Below, piece after piece: positions 401-59,152 of a stretch of 64,000 nt of DNA (its first letter is position 1; the number at the start of each line of letters is the position of its first letter). This DNA is from Raillietiella orientalis (lineage: Eukaryota). Both the position numbers and the translations under genes were made by a program. The stretch spans positions 2,852,001 to 2,916,000 of the forward strand of contig JAYWIR010000008.1 of NCBI GenBank assembly GCA_036172245.1, in the 5' to 3' direction. The notes below the pieces were generated by a model, which saw only the letters and a list, made by a program, of their open reading frames with translations, was not told where the DNA came from and ran no database searches.

Positions 401-1311
401 GTGTGGTTACGGTCCCCGGGTCCGTTCTTGAGCAAGATTCCAAAAAGGAGCCTCTCCTTCCTCCCCCCCCTCCAGCAGAAAGTGAAGGAGTCCTTTCAAA
501 GCCAAGGTCCGCCGCCGGATTTTCTCCTCCCTCGCTAGAAACGAAGACCCTCCCATGAAGAAAATACGGATGTTTGTGGGTGAGGTCACGATTCAGATAG
601 GCACGACAGCGCGCAGCTGTCCGTCCGGAACAGGCTCTCGTGTGCTCGTGGAACCGCGAAGGAATGCGGGAACAGACACCTCGGTTTCGTGAGAGTCGGA
701 AGGGGACACCACGCTCATCGCCGAGAAGGATCGGGATCGTGGTGGTGAGGACTGCAGCAGATTTGTCGTTCCGGGAAGAGCGACTGCTCGGTGGTAACAG
801 CGCTGATCCCCCCTTTGCTGCAAGGAGCCACTCGACTCAACTTTTACGTGACCTTGCCATGTGACACCTGGGACTGTACGTCACGGGAAGCGGCATCAGC
901 GTCATCTTGACGCGCGAGGCCATCGTGAATTACATCAGCCACTCTTGTGGGAGCCGGTTTCCGCGCAGCTGCGCGCCGTTGACCCCGCAGAGATACTCAC
1001 ATCCGCCTGAGCCGGCTCCCGGCAACGCGCTGCAAGTGAGTCCAGAGGCTACTACCAGTGGATGTTGACGAGTACCAGCTCCCGCAGTGACCCCGGAGTG
1101 ATGCTGGAATCGCTTCTGGAATCGCATCCCGAAGATTGCTTGTCTCGCAGCTTGCTTCGCTACGGATCGGCTCCTGCAAACGGGAAATGGCTTTGAGGAT
1201 GCAACGATGACGCGCCAAGTGCCGAACCCAGTGGTGTGGGCGGAGCCATGTTGCATCCACGCTGAATCAGGTGGCTCCAAGGAATGAATACATAGGGGTG
1301 CGCATAGGCAT

Positions 1312-1830
1312 TGCAACCCGGTCGCATCCGGGGCGTTCATTAATGAAAATAGACTCACAATTATCGTGGCGGGGTGCGAAGTCCCACCACAGCCAATTAC
1401 ACAGTTGACCTGCCGGTTCGCCGGAATACAGATCAACGGGCTCACCTCGGCAGCGGAGGAGGGGAGGTAAATAGATAAATAAAGAATAAATAGAAATAGG
1501 CGCATAGGCAAAAAGCTGAAAACTGACCTCATGACCCTTAAACGAGTATTTGGAAAAATTTCCCATTGCCCATGCCTGCGGAGTCTGGGCGGTGCGCGAG
1601 CAGATCACCATCAAACCAGCAAAGTGGGCTTTTGCTGACGGGAATGCCTCCCCTATTCATTCGGCTGAGAGCTTCGATCCACACTTAACAGCACAGAGGG
1701 GATCCGGCCTCTGAATCGCCCGAGGGACTGTGACCTCGATCTTTCTGATGAAACAAGTCCTTGCCTCCGTGCAGAAGCAGCAGTGGGTGCTGCAGCCCAA
1801 TTTGGTCACTCAGGGACTCCGGCGAACTTC
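1312..1830 (-). mobile_element. LINE family T (L1/Tx1-like) 3' remnant T1
   Basis: Minus strand has a U-rich tract then cctccgctgccgagg...cggcagg, a long hairpin and terminal cccgg/ccggg hairpin, matching the 3' UTR at 20900-21065; a degenerate CxxC (HCCFC) lies upstream. Confidence 0.65.
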
Positions 1831-4967: not shown

Positions 4968-5900
4968 TTTTTTCCTTTCACCAGGATTTGCTGGGCATTC
5001 GTTATAAAAAATAATAAATTGGCATTCCTGTGGTCCACTTCTTGGTGCTACCAGCACGTCCTTGGAGGGAAGGAAAACTAAACTTGGACTCGCCCGATTT
5101 TTCCGGTGCGCAGACCGGCGCGGTCCGCTTTGGCGGCGGTGGAGGAGGGAGAAACGAAAACGAAAGTAAACAAACAAACAAATAAAAAAAAGGACGGAAG
5201 AGTTCTCATCGTGGAAGGGGAGGAATTTCGAGGAAGGGATCACGGTACGTTGCCCAGAGTCTTCTGCATCCTGCTGAGGATGCTGGCAAGTTCCGCCCGT
5301 ATATCGCCCAGATGGATCATCTCGTGGCGGTCCTCGGAAAGATGCGCGCAGTGGATGGAGTATCTGTCATTCCGGCCTCTTCTTCTGACGTTCCAGGCCG
5401 ACACCATCCTGCAAAGACAGGAAGAGGAAACTGTGAGGGAACGCAGGTGGAGGCAGTGGGGCATGCGCGAAGAGGCGTCTGAAGATGTCCTTGGGCCGCA
5501 CACCGGGATTCCTAGGGTGGCCGCTAGACGATCCCGAGGGGATCGGAGGGCAGCAGTCTAGAAGCAGGTGGGGGAGGGTCTCCTTCTCCCCGCACCTGTC
5601 TTACCTCGTGCCCGCCCTTCCCCGGGTCCAGAGATGAAGGCGTGCTTTGCACGGGATCCCCCAATGTGAGACCAGCAACTCCAACTCCTGTCACGTGGGA
5701 AGGAGGATGCCGCTGTTTCAGCTCGCTGGGGGTCACTTGAGGTCCTCCGGAGGGATGGCGAGCAGCTCCTCCCGGCGCAGAAATCCTTTGGGTGGGACAC
5801 TCGCGGTCGCAGAGTTCGTGAGTTCCACTGCTGTCCACACACCCAGAAGAATGTTCAGAGGGGGGGCGAACAGCGGTCGCGCGACGATCTCACCCTCTCC
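4968..5900 (-). mobile_element. LINE family T 3' remnant T2
   Basis: Minus translation gives DRCGEKETLPHLLLDC (zf-RVT-like, first Cys lost to a stop) and HLGDIRAELASILSRMQKT, homologous to HLGDARMELAGILERMQRT at 20790-20850; 3' UTR hairpin ccggt-ctgcgc-accgg. Confidence 0.85.
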
Positions 5901-16732: not shown

Positions 16733-17290
16733 CTTTCCACCCGGGTTCGTCGGGAAGTTTATTTATATGGAACAAACTAACAAGTCGGTGGCAGAACGTT
16801 TCGTTCTGCCACGTTACAAATGTAACCATGGGAACCTGCCGAGAACCGTCACGCAGACTGGCGAGGTTCGCCTCGGCAGCAAAGGGGGAGGGGGACAAAT
16901 AAAAATAAAAATAAAATAAAAACACAAATATATATAAAAAATCTGGAGGGTTCAAAAAGGGATCACTGGGTGCTGGAAGGTGTCCTCTGCATCCTTCCCG
17001 GGATGCCAGCTGGTTCCTGTTCCATAATTCCCAGATGGAGCCATCTTGACGTTGTCCTCCAGAAGAGATCAGCGAAATCTGGATGGCGTCCCCGTCGTCC
17101 TGGCCTCCTTTGGCGCTGCTCCAAGCCGTCACGATCCCGCGAGTAGCAGAGTCCTGCTAGGGATGCAGTCGGCGCGGGGGGTGTTGCGTAAGAGGAGGAG
17201 CTTTAAAAACTCGTCGCCTGGCTGACTTCTCGTTCGTCGCGCCACCATCACTTGGTCTCTCGACGGTGATGAGGGCTCAGCGCGGTGGCC
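16733..17290 (-). mobile_element. LINE family T 3' remnant T3
   Basis: Minus strand homologous to 20600-21065 (DEFLKLLLLRN...GIVTAWSSAKGG); 3' UTR gctgccgaggcgaacctc...ctcggcaggttcc. Confidence 0.85.
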
Positions 17291-19309: not shown

Positions 19310-21070
19310 CTGGAATCCTAAGGTTTCAGGAGTGCTGCAACGAACGCATCTTTTCTCGCGGACATTCCTTTGGGCATCACGAGGGAGGGGAGAGAGAGAA
19401 CAAGTCTCTCTGTGTGCCTTGCCACTTCCAGGGCTGTTGTCCAACACTCAAGGAGTCACGTGGCCAAGCGGAGCGCGTGGCAGCCCTGAACGGGAGCGCG
19501 AAGATTTGGATTTGAATCTGCCCTCCGGGATAGGCTGCTGCTCGCAAGGCCAGCAACCCACCTCGTGCTTCCAGGGCGTGTCTCAGGAATCTTGCGGCTT
19601 CGATAGCACCGTTTACCTGCTGGCGTGCTCCGACCATCTCCTTGGCTACCCGACTTTTCTCGCTAGGCCGCCGTTTAGCGGTTTACCAGCTCAGGTGCTC
19701 CTCTGGTGGCAGTGTGGAGAGCTTTCCTTGCCTCTACCAGTGCCCTGGACGTTGGAACACGTAAAGCCCAGAAAGACCTGTTCTTGCTGGAGCTCGAGGT
19801 CTGGTCTGCTCGAGTCTGTCCCGGAGGCAGGCTGGTCGCACACCACCAGCTCTCGATGTTCCTCTTGATCTGAAATACCAGTTCATCGAGTCTTCCAGAG
19901 ATCATGCTTGCTGACCCGGATGTGCCTCAAAGAGGATTCTTTTCGCCCCACATGCCACCGGGCATGTGATCGATGCCACTTTCCACGGGTGACGGCCGCG
20001 CAGGCAGCGTACCAGGTCGCCACGGAAGCCGAAAATGTCCTGCGTGTATCAATCTGTTGTCCGCAGACCGGGGATCTCCTCCCTTGGACCAGAAAATAAG
20101 CGATGCTGGCTCCGAAATGGCTCCACGACCATTTCCTCGATTCGGACTTCTTGCGATGAGGGACCTCCGTGTACGGTTCCACGCATAGGCACAGCGTGGG
20201 CAACTCCAATCGCGGAACGAAGAGTGAAGGAATTGGATGATTGGACCACAGAGTCCATGAACTGATCACGGACCAACCCACGGGAGTTGTAGCCCCAAGT
20301 GCCCCACCGGAAGCACTACTGCTATAGGGTGAGCTGCTGGGAATCCTACAAGAAGACCTCGAATGCCCCCCAGCGCTGAAGAACCACCAGGCCTTCCCCC
20401 TGAAGTGACAGGAGTCGGCACTTCTGCTGTTGCACTGGGACCTCCTGTGCAGCGACCGCCGCTCTCACTGGACCCAGGGGGCTGTGTACCCCAACTGCTA
20501 CAGATGCAGGGAGAGGGAATCCTATGTCCCGCACCTGCCCATTGACTGTGCTGCCCTCCGGCCCCTGTGGTTGCGTTACGCGACGACCCTTGGTGCATCG
20601 ACGGACAATCCCAGGGACGTCATGAAGCGCCTCTTCGTGCGCGATGCCCTTTCGCCTGCCGCATCCCCAGCGGCCCTTTGTTGCCTACGAGGGATTGTGG
20701 TGGCCCAGAGCTACGCGAGGGGAGGGCGGCGCGGTAGAGACGCCTTCTGCTTCTCCCTGAGCTCCCTGCGGACGGCAGAAAGATGGGCCCACCTGGGGGA
20801 TGCTCGGATGGAACTTGCCGGCATCCTGGAAAGGATGCAGAGAACGCCCTCCAGCTATCGGTGATTCCTTCCCTAACCCTCTCAATTTTTTTGTATAAAT
20901 TTTTTGTCTGTCCCCTCCCCTCCGCTGCCGAGGCGAACCTCCCCGGTCTGCGTGCCGGCCACTTGGCAGGTTCCGAACATTTTCGGACGTTGTAGGGCCG
21001 ATGGCCCTACACTTATCTGTTTATTACTTTCATGCAATGAACACCTCTGCATTACCGGGTGTTAAACCAA
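19310..21070 (+). mobile_element. LINE family T (L1/Tx1-like), 5'-truncated copy T4 with ORF2 C-terminus and complete 3' UTR
   Basis: ORF 20430-20864 contains CYRCRERESYVPHLPIDCAALRPLW (CxxC..H..C zf-RVT pattern); upstream ERVAALNGSAKIW resembles the post-RT motif of L1/Tx1; stops and frameshifts upstream. Confidence 0.85.
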
Positions 21071-41290: not shown

Positions 41291-41519
41291 CGAAGAGGAG
41301 CCAGCTGGCCGGTCGGGAAGGTCCGCGTCAGGGAAGGGGGAGGGGAGGGTTAGCGAATGGAGTAATGAGAAAATATTTGGGGTAAGGGCGGCTTGAGGGA
41401 GAGACCGCCGGTAATCTCCGGGGGCTCCTGCATCCTGTGCAGGATGCTGACACTTCCCTTCTTCAATTTCACCAGTAGGAGCCATCCCGTTTCCATCTCA
41501 AGGAGGAGGTAGTCATGGT

Positions 41520-43040
41520 GATTTTCACCAGGTGACGCCACAAGGAAAGGAAAGGAAAAAGGAAACCACAAGTCAAAGGGGGCTGCGTCCCCTGAATACA
41601 AGAGATACCCCCCAAAAAAAGTTCATTAGGAATGACCACCGGCACGCAGACCAGCTTCCCAAAAACTAAGGAATGAAGGGAGGGAACAACAAATGAATAA
41701 AAAAAGAGGGGAGGGTAGGACAGGAGTCCCGGGTTCCATTCGTCCTTTTTCTTCCTAGAAGAGGCAATGTATGCTGGTGATCTCACTGATGGCCTTTTCT
41801 GGTAGGTGAGACCGCCTTGCAGCTGTCCTCATGAAGGCGGTGGCCATGCTGGTAGCCTCCCTTCACTGAGAACGAGACTCCAACACATGGCGGGCTGTCA
41901 CCATGGTTCGGAGGAAACAGACCGTTGCGACCACAGCGCCCGCCTTGATTGAAGAAGCGCCTCAGCAGGTCCGAAGCGGAGGTGGTCATGGTGATGGCTC
42001 TTCCGCTCTGGCGTTGTGCTCTTCCGGCTGCGCCTCGCTTCGCGACGCCGCTTAGGAGGCAGCAGAGGGCTGCGATGCTCTGCTCACGAAGAGGTCTTTG
42101 GACACGCTTCAGGGATTATCCACAGGGCGGAGGAGAGCCGCTGAGCGAAATGCTTCTGTAAAGAGCTCGTAGGTCTAAAGCTGCAGGCGGCACTGAGAAA
42201 CCGAACCCACCATAGGGCATTCTTACTTTCTGCTGGAAGAATGAAAATGAAGTCACCCGACACCAAATCAAGTCTTCCGAAATGGTGAGAGGAAATGGGG
42301 CACAAGGATGGTAATAAGCCTAAGAAAGCTTAACCCTCGAGGAACTCGAAGACATTTGCAACATTCTGCAGGTGTCGTTGGCTCTCTCCTTCACATTCGC
42401 AGCTCAACCGTGGTATCCCACCGAAGCTGGAAGCGTCCTGGCAATCCGAGTTGGTTGGCTGCTTCCACGGTTTCGTGAGAACCGAAGGTATTTTATGGTC
42501 AGAAGCTTCAAGACGTTTTACGTCCAGTCCTTCCTGGAGTTCGCGGGGAAACTGTAGTGAAACTCGTCGGTCTCTTGGCTCGGTTCCCTGCCCAGTTTCG
42601 TCTTGGATCTCGCGACGAGTGGATGGAGACTGAGAAGACATCTCTCATCCCTCGCGTGGAGGCTGGACCGCAGATCTCGGGAACCGGACGGCTTCCGGAA
42701 TGACCGGATTTTTTTCTCACGCCTCGGTGATTACGGGATGGCTCGCAGCGGCGAATGGAGCCGTCGTTCCGGCGATCCCGCACGAAGACAGGATTTTTCG
42801 CGATTGGAGGCACGTCGGGGGCAAACACGGGGCGCAGAAGACCTGTGGCGCCTCTCCAGGATGCCAAGCAATGTCCACGGCTGAACCGATAAAACCTGGA
42901 GGCCCGTTCTGCCGAAGAGAGAGACGCGAAATTCGTGGGTTGGCTCCAAGCTCACCACGGAAACACTCTCTGCCTTCACCACGTGGGGATTCGGTGCAGC
43001 CACGGAAGCCCAGTGGTTTCCTGTCCCGAGCTTCAAGGAT
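41520..43040 (-). mobile_element. Family T sister LINE remnant T6 (RT core to 3' UTR)
   Basis: Minus strand in order: LLGILER, RGVRK, TIKYL, MPYGGFG, then VCFLRTMVTAR...RTAARRSHL..AISEITSI*, and 3' UTR hairpin gctggtctgcgtgccggt, ending cctggtgaaaa. Confidence 0.7.
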
Positions 43041-44034: not shown

Positions 44035-45650
44035 TTTTTTTTTCATGTGACCACTTCAAAAGGCGATGCCTCGGAGGCGCAGTTTCTTGTGGGCAGCTCC
44101 CCGATGAGGTCCGCACAGGAGAAGTAGGAAATGGGTGGACAAAAACACAAAAAACACCAAAGTTGAGGTAAAAAAATGTAGGGGGGTAAGGGAAGAGATC
44201 ACAGACTTCTTCCTGGCGTTCTCAGCATCCACTGGAGGATGTTGGCAAGCAACTTCCTCCTTTTGTTGGCAGAGATGTGGCCTGCCAACAAAAGGCGGAA
44301 GTAGCCTTCCTCAGGAAGGAGCAGACAACTTCGATAACCTCATCATTCGACTGGCCTCTTTCGGCATGACTTCTCGCCGCCATGATCCCTCGAAAGCAGC
44401 ACGGAGATTCAAGGGAAGCTGCAGGCGACGTCGAGTTGCGCGTGAAGAGGCTCCGCAAGATCTCCCTGCCGTTTGTCCGTCGGGAGAGGGGGGGCCGCAG
44501 AGAAGTGTTCTCAGATACTCAGGAGAGCAACAGAATCCAACGACAGGTGCGGGAAGGTTTCCCTTTCCCCATACTGGCACAATAGGGGAAGGGAACACGC
44601 TGGGGTTACACTCCCTCTTGTCCAGTGGTAAACCCGTCCGTTGCAAGTGATCTCCTAGTGCAGGAACTGCAAGACCGAGTCCCGCCATTTCAGGGGAAGC
44701 GCGGAGCTATCCACAAACACAGGGATTATCTCTGCCTCTTCAGGAGGAATGAACAGGAGTTGCACCCAGAGGCGAATTTCTTTGAGGAGGGAGGCAGGGC
44801 TACATGAGCCATCCAGTCGACACATACTTTAGCATTACAACTGCTTCTTTTTTCCCGCGATCTCTGGTGCTTTTCTTTCAGATTTTGAACTCAGCAAAGG
44901 ATAGAGCCACCATCTCACTTTAGCCTCCCTGGGTGATGATTCCCCGAATACTGACGGAAAATGGCTCTCATGCCTCTTCAAAAGGTCCATTTGCGCGGGA
45001 CGCCCGTCGGAACTTTGGATGATTTGGAATTCGCGAGCAGCTAGAGGAAGCATCTTTCATCCGAGGACCAGCCCCGCAAGGGTACCGGTCCGATCGGCGT
45101 AAAGAGTCATCTTAGCCGTCCGGGACTGGATAAAGAAGATGGGATCAGAATCTATATCAAATCTTCTACGGACGTGCGTCATCAGCCAGCCCCACAGAGC
45201 CGTTTCGAGTCGGAGGCACAGCCCGGAGTGACCCAAAGCTGCAGTGTGGCGCATTAAGGAGCGAGTGCATCTGCAAGAGGCGTCGTTCGTGATTTCGTCA
45301 TCAACTCTCTCGAATGAAAGCCCCTACCCCCTCATCGTCCTGCCATCCCTTGATTTTGAGAGTTTTCGTCACGGCCCACTTTGCAGCCATTTGGAGGTCC
45401 CTGTCGATGGAGGCCGAATCTTTCGGGGAGTCATCCCCGACAGCCACATCCCTTCATTATTTGGGCCTCCATCCAAAGTCGTGCTGCTTACTCTTTCAGC
45501 AGTTTGACTCGAGGCTCCGATCGACCGTGTTTTCTGCGTCTTCTGGCGGATGCTGTGGACTCTTCGCTGTCTCCAGAAGCTGCACTCCTCCTAGAAGAAC
45601 GCCCGTTTTCTTCCCTTCGAATCTTCGGTGTTCCACAAACCTATAAGAAA
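44035..45650 (-). mobile_element. LINE family T remnant T7 (RT fragment plus C-terminus)
   Basis: KMTLYADR (YADD relic) near 45105; LPLKWRD..LH*..YHWTRG..GERETFPHLSLD and RSLFTRNSTSPAASLESPCCFRGIMAA match T4. Confidence 0.8.
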
Positions 45651-58779: not shown

Positions 58780-59152
58780 CAGATTCCCTCGAGAACGCCT
58801 CCGGCTGATTCCTAGCAGCCCTTTGCTGCCTATACGGGATCGTGGCGGCCTGGAGCAATACCAGTCAGAGTCAGTCATTCCGAGAAGAGCTTGCCAGCAT
58901 CCTCGGGTGAATTCAGAGGACGGCCTTCGGCAGGCTGTGATCCCTTTTCATGCCCTCCAAAGCTGCTTCAATTTTCGTTTGTTTGCTTTTCTTCATTTTT
59001 TGGTTTTCCCCTCTGCAGTCGAGGTCATCCCCCCAGTCTGTGCACCGGACGCTCGGTAAGCCGTGCCCATGCCAGGACTTGATGGGGCAGATGGCCCCAT
59101 TGTTTTTGTAAGTTTATTTTTAACAAACGACCCAGCGATCCTGGGTGAAAAC
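58780..59152 (+). mobile_element. LINE family T short 3' copy T8 (internal deletion)
   Basis: AALCCLYGIVAAWS...EELASILG*IQRT; 3' UTR with gtcgag/ctcggt, cagtctgtgcac, atggggc/gccccat and terminal acccag/ctgggt-gaaaa. Confidence 0.85.

Follow-up and report, generated by a model that had tools for sequence, protein, structure and literature searches.

LINEs of the L1 clade are usually taken to recognise poly(A). Structured 3' ends have been described in several related systems. In zebrafish, binding by the L2 ORF2 protein (ORF2p) is loop-specific and stem-general (PMC4176376). The monocot L1 lineage LINE1-1_ZM, together with ZmSINE2/3, carries covarying 3' hairpins, and Chlamydomonas L1-1_CR has a tail in common with SINEX-3_CR (PMC3472496). 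For A-clade R2 elements, a 3' pseudoknot-hinge-stem was shown by cryo-EM and compensatory mutants (PMC11601368), and a bulged 3' stem-loop has been proposed for human L1 RNA (PMC5135761).

We analysed the 3' tail of T4, a 5'-truncated copy of ~0.8 kb from an abundant LINE group, found in a 64,000-nt stretch of DNA (the window), along with its relatives in the 210-Mb genome searched. An actin from this genome, which starts MCEEEVAAL, points to an invertebrate animal. With the stringent L2-clade tails (zebrafish ZfL2-1/ZfL2-2, eel UnaL2) the T4 group shares a sequence-fixed loop on an exchangeable stem and a short or absent poly(A), but it is L1/Tx1-like, comprises at least three modules over ~150 nt with AATAAA, and ends in a few A's instead of short tandem repeats, and binding of its tail by ORF2p is putative (PMC4176376). 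The monocot L1 lineage and the T4 group both belong to the L1 clade and have a conserved 3' hairpin with compensatory changes. Nevertheless, compared by description, the T4 group differs from the monocot lineage and L1-1_CR in being animal, in its larger architecture, in having no partner SINE seen, and in lacking the poly(A) in which those elements end (PMC3472496). The A-clade R2 3' UTR resembles the T4 tail as a multi-module RNA of divergent sequence with an upstream knot (a candidate in T4) and a terminal stem; R2, however, is RLE-type, while the T4 group is APE-type, its ORF2 has no recognised N-terminal zinc-finger region, and its knot is putative (PMC11601368). Human L1 copies end in long poly(A), with no cross-family covariation of the kind seen in the T4 group. 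Tx1 clade LINEs and the T4 group are both animal, encode APE and RT, are close to L1 and include families with fixed target sites (PMC4494074, PMC3747384).

The modules of T4 are as follows, all coordinates in this paper being positions within the window.

20250..20864, + strand: 5'-truncated C-terminal remnant of ORF2, zinc-knuckle region (54-62% amino acid identity to the intact ORF2 of families A and B)
20862-64, + strand: ORF2 stop codon
20866..20923, + strand: U-rich tract, then C-rich run, modelled as unpaired
20924..20932, + strand: outer helix a, 5' arm, pairing with a' over 7 bp and possibly lengthened, past a bulged G, by GC at 20924-25
20933..20941, + strand: 5'-side internal loop including b (20935-39/40), complementary to b' (candidate pseudoknot pairing)
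20942..20959, + strand: inner hairpin P3, loop CUGCGU at 20948-53; the module with the strongest support
20962..20968, + strand: 3' arm a', with a private C>T at 20964 in the T4 copy
20969..20973, + strand: b', contested by b, the a/a' extension and hairpin P4
20972..20987, + strand: hairpin P4, 6 bp, lineage-specific
20991..21011, + strand: hairpin P5, 9 bp in T4; most families have 7-11 bp and numerous double changes
21012..21041, + strand: AU-rich spacer with a polyadenylation-signal-like hexamer (AATGAA in the T4 copy, AATAAA in its family)
21040..21066, + strand: terminal GC hairpin, decayed in the T4 copy; end GGGTG, then TT and three A's

All T4 modules named in the preliminary description were found where it had placed them, namely a (20927-32), b (20935-40), the CCGG hairpin (20943-58), a' (20962-67), b' (20968-73), the perfect hairpin (20991-21011), AATGAA (21036-41) and the terminal arms (21040-45/21058-63). 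Its list was incomplete, however, as the 6-bp hairpin at 20972-87, which overlaps b', had been overlooked. The a/a' helix reaches 7 bp, with A20968 common to a/a' and b'. Folding of the T4 tail gave z = -2.0, and the target of T4 shows only a 2-4 base preference. Long perfect palindromes occur in the flank directly 3' of the element end in two related T4-family copies (L157, L158).

Five further copies with tails of this type lie in the window.

16734..17175, - strand: copy T3, consisting of an ORF2 remnant and the tail, with its core at 16832-16880
4976..5846, - strand: copy T2, from a divergent subfamily, its a/a' damaged
1310..1600, - strand: tail of copy T1 (5' extent not mapped)
58780..59151, + strand: copy T8, short ORF2 remnant and tail
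41515..41955, - strand: copy T6, which keeps the P3 loop, a P5-like hairpin and the terminal hairpin and is without a/a' and b/b' (weak ORF2 link, E 0.004)

The inner-hairpin pattern matched six times in the window against 0.9 expected, a count reached in none of 100 shuffles, and five of the six matches are LINE tails, among them T6, which had gone uncited. The motifs cited earlier for T1, T2, T3 and T8 are all present. The 11-bp stem of T3, previously called unrelated, proved to be the same hairpin as P5 of T4 with compensatory changes. The claim that pairing is kept with changed sequence across copies holds between families, but several of the changes cited for it are private mutations. Among these, a' (CTTGGC) and the terminal arms of T4 deviate from the majority of its own family, whose a' is that of T3, and the cores of the T4 and T3 families are near-identical letter for letter. 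Window copies never exceeded 84% identity in their genome matches; as they are old and privately mutated, we tested pairing across families. In the T7 family (window copy 44075-44864, - strand), considered from three extra copies (L084, L126 and L130), a b-like word and the terminal hairpin are kept and the inner hairpin is remodelled; the window copy ends at a run of nine A's, before the normal family end. The window also holds two near-identical repeat pairs of other families, at 2890-3556/14447-15115 (96%, inverted) and 12840-13391/35532-36083 (99%, direct).

First-look searches of the genome returned 2104 candidates for the T4 tail, 1357 for T3, 453 for T2, 122 for T1, 62 for T8, 1163 for F, 849 for E and 269 for T6, but these sets overlap and the queries included ORF2 ends, so that the figures are not copy numbers. 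A profile search of genome loci yielded 247 matches, which were reduced to 212 distinct tails by dropping low scores, cut ends and duplicates; 207 of the 212 were assigned to 22 families, and 28 further copies were added for families F and E. The core was tested on 18 families, excluding the two-copy families H, T2w, F2 and T1c; among those tested, C2 is represented by one copy and G2 by two. Old families diverge by 12-18% from their majority sequences. CpG decay was considered and rejected as a source of apparent covariation, C>T/G>A changes at CpG being about as frequent as at other C/G in nine families (T4, 0.092 vs 0.073; T3, 0.065 vs 0.078). The lack of a clear CpG transition excess in these families suggests that repeats in the genome undergo little CpG methylation in the germ line.

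Intact relatives encode an ORF2 of ~1,200 amino acids, in which the APE endonuclease (PF03372) and RT (PF00078) score above the Pfam cut-offs; the C-terminal zinc knuckle is visible as a motif, zf-RVT (PF13966) being below cut-off at E 4e-4. An ORF1 with a CCHC knuckle lies upstream of ORF2 in two loci (L199 and L200), and a Pfam search of ORF1 from intact relatives gave no match. The closest solved relative of ORF2 is human L1 ORF2p (E 3e-46, against 6e-15 for R2), a coarse comparison because the list of solved relatives lacks other APE clades. A homolog search returned a single match, an unnamed protein at 28% identity. None of 35 long frames in the window matched Pfam, the copies there being too decayed. 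Copies of families A, B, D, T1a and F have common 3' flanks within each family, which indicates fixed target sites, a trait of Tx1 clade LINEs (PMC4494074), and for B, D and T1a the empty target sites could be identified as well. The fixed sites of these five families lie within other repeats, several of them in the ORFs of related LINEs. By these sequence features (APE, RT, zinc knuckle, upstream ORF1, an RT nearer to L1 than to R2) the T4 group is an L1/Tx1-like APE-type LINE, as the preliminary description had it; the fixed target sites make it a candidate member of the Tx1 clade proper. Directly downstream of an ORF2 C-terminus lie 196 of the 212 tails, in a sample biased by queries that included ORF2 ends.

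A sister LINE group with 25-30% ORF2 identity is without the core and has a different terminal GC hairpin followed by 2-4 A's; AATAAA stands at the matching place in 7 of its 11 tails. Young two-ORF LINEs of this group form head-to-tail arrays with a spacing of ~5.6 kb (L181-L191, L195-L198). RT elements of another kind, with long single ORFs and no APE match, are clustered in L192-L194, some near a contig end. Scans for the motif gave no match in viral contigs and one in metagenomes, a chance match inside a bacterial methyltransferase-like gene; both collections are poor in animal genomes.

The preliminary description had proposed a conserved multi-module structure for this 3' UTR, and the pairing of a/a', P3 and P5 across the 18 families bears it out. 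For a/a' (7 bp) and P3 (5 bp) together, 89.8% of cells were paired in 18 natural copies, one per family, and 7 of the 12 pairs showed double changes, a level equalled in none of 500 shuffles. RNAalifold, unprompted, returned the same nested fold. Covariation had been suggested as a check, and swapping partners among 10 lineages weakened both a/a' (energy, p 0.002; pair count, p 0.001) and P3 (energy, p <1e-5; pair count, p 0.0004), while three control pairings gave p 0.14-0.90. In family F, two a/a' pairs are altered on both sides; in family B, the P3 stem is mostly replaced and its loop kept. The loop CUGCG has an identity of 1.00 among the 10 lineage representatives (CUGAG in three small families), compared with 0.39 for the linker to P5 and 0.55 for fourfold ORF2 sites in families A and B. 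For P5, pairing is 0.85 with matched and 0.69 with swapped partners, and several double changes occur; family F has a shortened P5, and in T1a it was not anchored. Eight of the 18 families carry a mismatch at position 5 of a/a'. Folding of single sequences gave a/a' a probability of 0.00-0.55 in the eight families folded, other CCGG/CGGC pairings often being preferred; pseudoknot-free folding is ambiguous because these words recur. Two further contacts were considered and rejected: pairing of the P3 loop with GCAG in a' (0.90 canonical), since in family F that G and its partner in a have changed jointly, and loop-loop kissing between P3 and the terminal hairpin, which showed no linked changes by eye. 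Taken at the level of families, covariation supports the two-tier hairpin of a/a' and P3, as well as P5, well.

The families come from one ancestor and GC-rich words pair easily, so the palindromic words might have been conserved by common descent with no selected structure. The swap tests and double changes in a/a', P3 and P5, as well as a loop conservation well above the identity at fourfold sites, speak against such a history; covariation of P3 and P5 contradicts it, and we regard it as largely refuted and barely credible.

The order a-b-hairpin-a'-b' had been read as a pseudoknot. Of this claim, a/a' does covary, but support for b/b' is borderline and depends on the method, and T6 does without it. 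Pairing of b with b' is complete (5/5) in four of the 18 families (T4, T3, T3b and T2), reaches 4/5 in another 10 when B/C are given their sequence-best gap, and is 2-3/5 in T8a-c and A. If b and b' pair alongside an intact a/a' and P3, ORF2p might read a compact fold, much as A-clade R2 proteins read a pseudoknot-hinge-stem (PMC11601368). In favour of such a true pseudoknot, b/b' is the best of the 183 registers available to the b segment, its pairing beats letter shuffles (4/300 and 0/300; 5/500), and the swap test by pair count gives a weak signal (p 0.045, 0.026 and 0.015 for three register choices, uncorrected). Double changes are seen in T8a/b and, for T1 vs F, in the adjoining pair, and a rough energy estimate with an assumed penalty favours the knot by ~4 kcal/mol in T4, T3, T3b, T2 and T1b. 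By duplex energy, however, the swap test gives p 0.44, foreign partners pairing as well as the family's own; b/b' ranks only 14th of 887 registers in the core, and its double changes do not exceed those of shuffles (195/500 and 223/500; covariation score, 44/500). The young families A, B and D have only 3-4 of the five pairs, interrupted by a bulge or by inner mismatches. A nested extension of a/a' explains the first three b' bases at least as well: the first is bulged and the following two pair with the GC ahead of a in 17/18 and 16/18 families, which accounts for uncompensated G>A and U>C changes there. In T4, B and their relatives, a local hairpin also takes up part of b'. The geometry, with loops of 2 and 0-1 nt, would be tight. 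Moreover, a/a' and b/b' are both absent from all 17 T6 copies, 14 of which keep the P3 loop, and T6 was amplified without a/a' to at least 40 matches. A true pseudoknot is therefore doubtful. It is likely that b/b' is an ancestral, labile complementarity, serving in some families as an alternative or transient pairing and not as a required pseudoknot. A rather speculative reading is that of an ancestral pseudoknot, or a two-state switch between the a/a' extension and b/b', read by a Tx1-like ORF2; this would be an independent parallel to R2 and the first in the L1 clade, and families sharing it could cross-mobilise RNA.

The same strand order is that of P1-P2-P3 in HDV-like self-cleaving ribozymes, and the pyrimidine-led loop and the GG after a' resemble L3 and P1.1. 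Nevertheless, there is no space for P4 and the catalytic joiner, and cleavage would remove the end that is copied. A simple HDV descriptor of our own, which passed its positive control, matched 1 of 18 family majorities in sense and 1 of 18 in antisense, and the Rfam ribozymes gave no match. We thus consider a ribozyme very improbable.

At the 3' end, AATAAA is present in 17 of 22 family majorities, and in 16 of the 17 its distance to the GGGTG end is 20-21 nt. The terminal module has an identity of 0.88 among the 10 lineage representatives; its hairpin is near-invariant within the group and hence shows no covariation. The earlier observation that copies end in short A runs instead of a long poly(A) extends to the genome, with runs of at most five A's in 149 of 151 scored copy ends, the other two having 7 and 15. 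The empty target sites of B, D and T1a show that the short runs belong to the element, and the single A15 end shows that copying of poly(A) does occur. Among the 212 copies, which were collected with queries including ORF2 ends, there was no SINE with just this tail in common, so that the classic sign of stringent recognition was not seen in this sample.

Alternatively, the tail may serve mainly host 3'-end formation or RNA stability, with the RT reading only the A tail, as thought for human L1. The U-rich and C-rich tracts, AAUAAA and protective hairpins would suit such a role, as would the fixed spacing from AATAAA to the end, the terminal module common to the distant sister group, and the rarity with which L1-clade LINEs share tails with SINEs (PMC3472496). 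On the other hand, the near-universal lack of a long A tail is a poor fit to priming anywhere on poly(A), and recognition by a co-inherited protein would agree with a loop that keeps its sequence while its stem is exchanged. We therefore judge a mainly host-directed role quite unlikely.

Our preferred reading, to which we give a probability of roughly 0.6, is that the T4-type tail, whose predicted fold comprises a nested CUGCG two-tier hairpin, a second hairpin and a terminal hairpin after AATAAA, acts as a handle by which ORF2p takes its own RNA and copies it from the RNA end. The transcript would be cut and adenylated just past the terminal hairpin, as directed by AAUAAA. By analogy with zebrafish L2, ORF2p may bind the CUGCG hairpin, reading the loop by sequence and the stems by shape. 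The terminal hairpin would then fix where among the first few A's reverse transcription begins, and copies would accordingly end in GGGTG, 0-2 bases and 2-5 A's. The earlier interpretation of the tail as a structured cis-element is likely as to its role.

Rfam 15 gave no match to the T4 tail at E 10, and on seven loci it gave six matches, none over the tail core. Rfam identifies a 5.8S rRNA copy (73.9 bits; L213:3895-4039) ~300 bases downstream of where a family D element ends. In searches confined to open-access literature, neither this tail nor any Tx1 3' structure was found to be described. The novelty proposed for the motif stands in that it has no Rfam match and that these searches found none described for Tx1-like elements, but it is weaker than claimed, as structured tails of the L1 clade and the R2 pseudoknot are published.

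Without the pseudoknot, the tail is one more case of a known class. Young families with a long open ORF2 and fixed target sites offer a ready test system, and a short, defined tail would matter for gene-insertion tools built from such elements. That a structured and nearly A-less tail is kept across many animal L1/Tx1-like families speaks for an ancient origin of specific 3' recognition within the clade.
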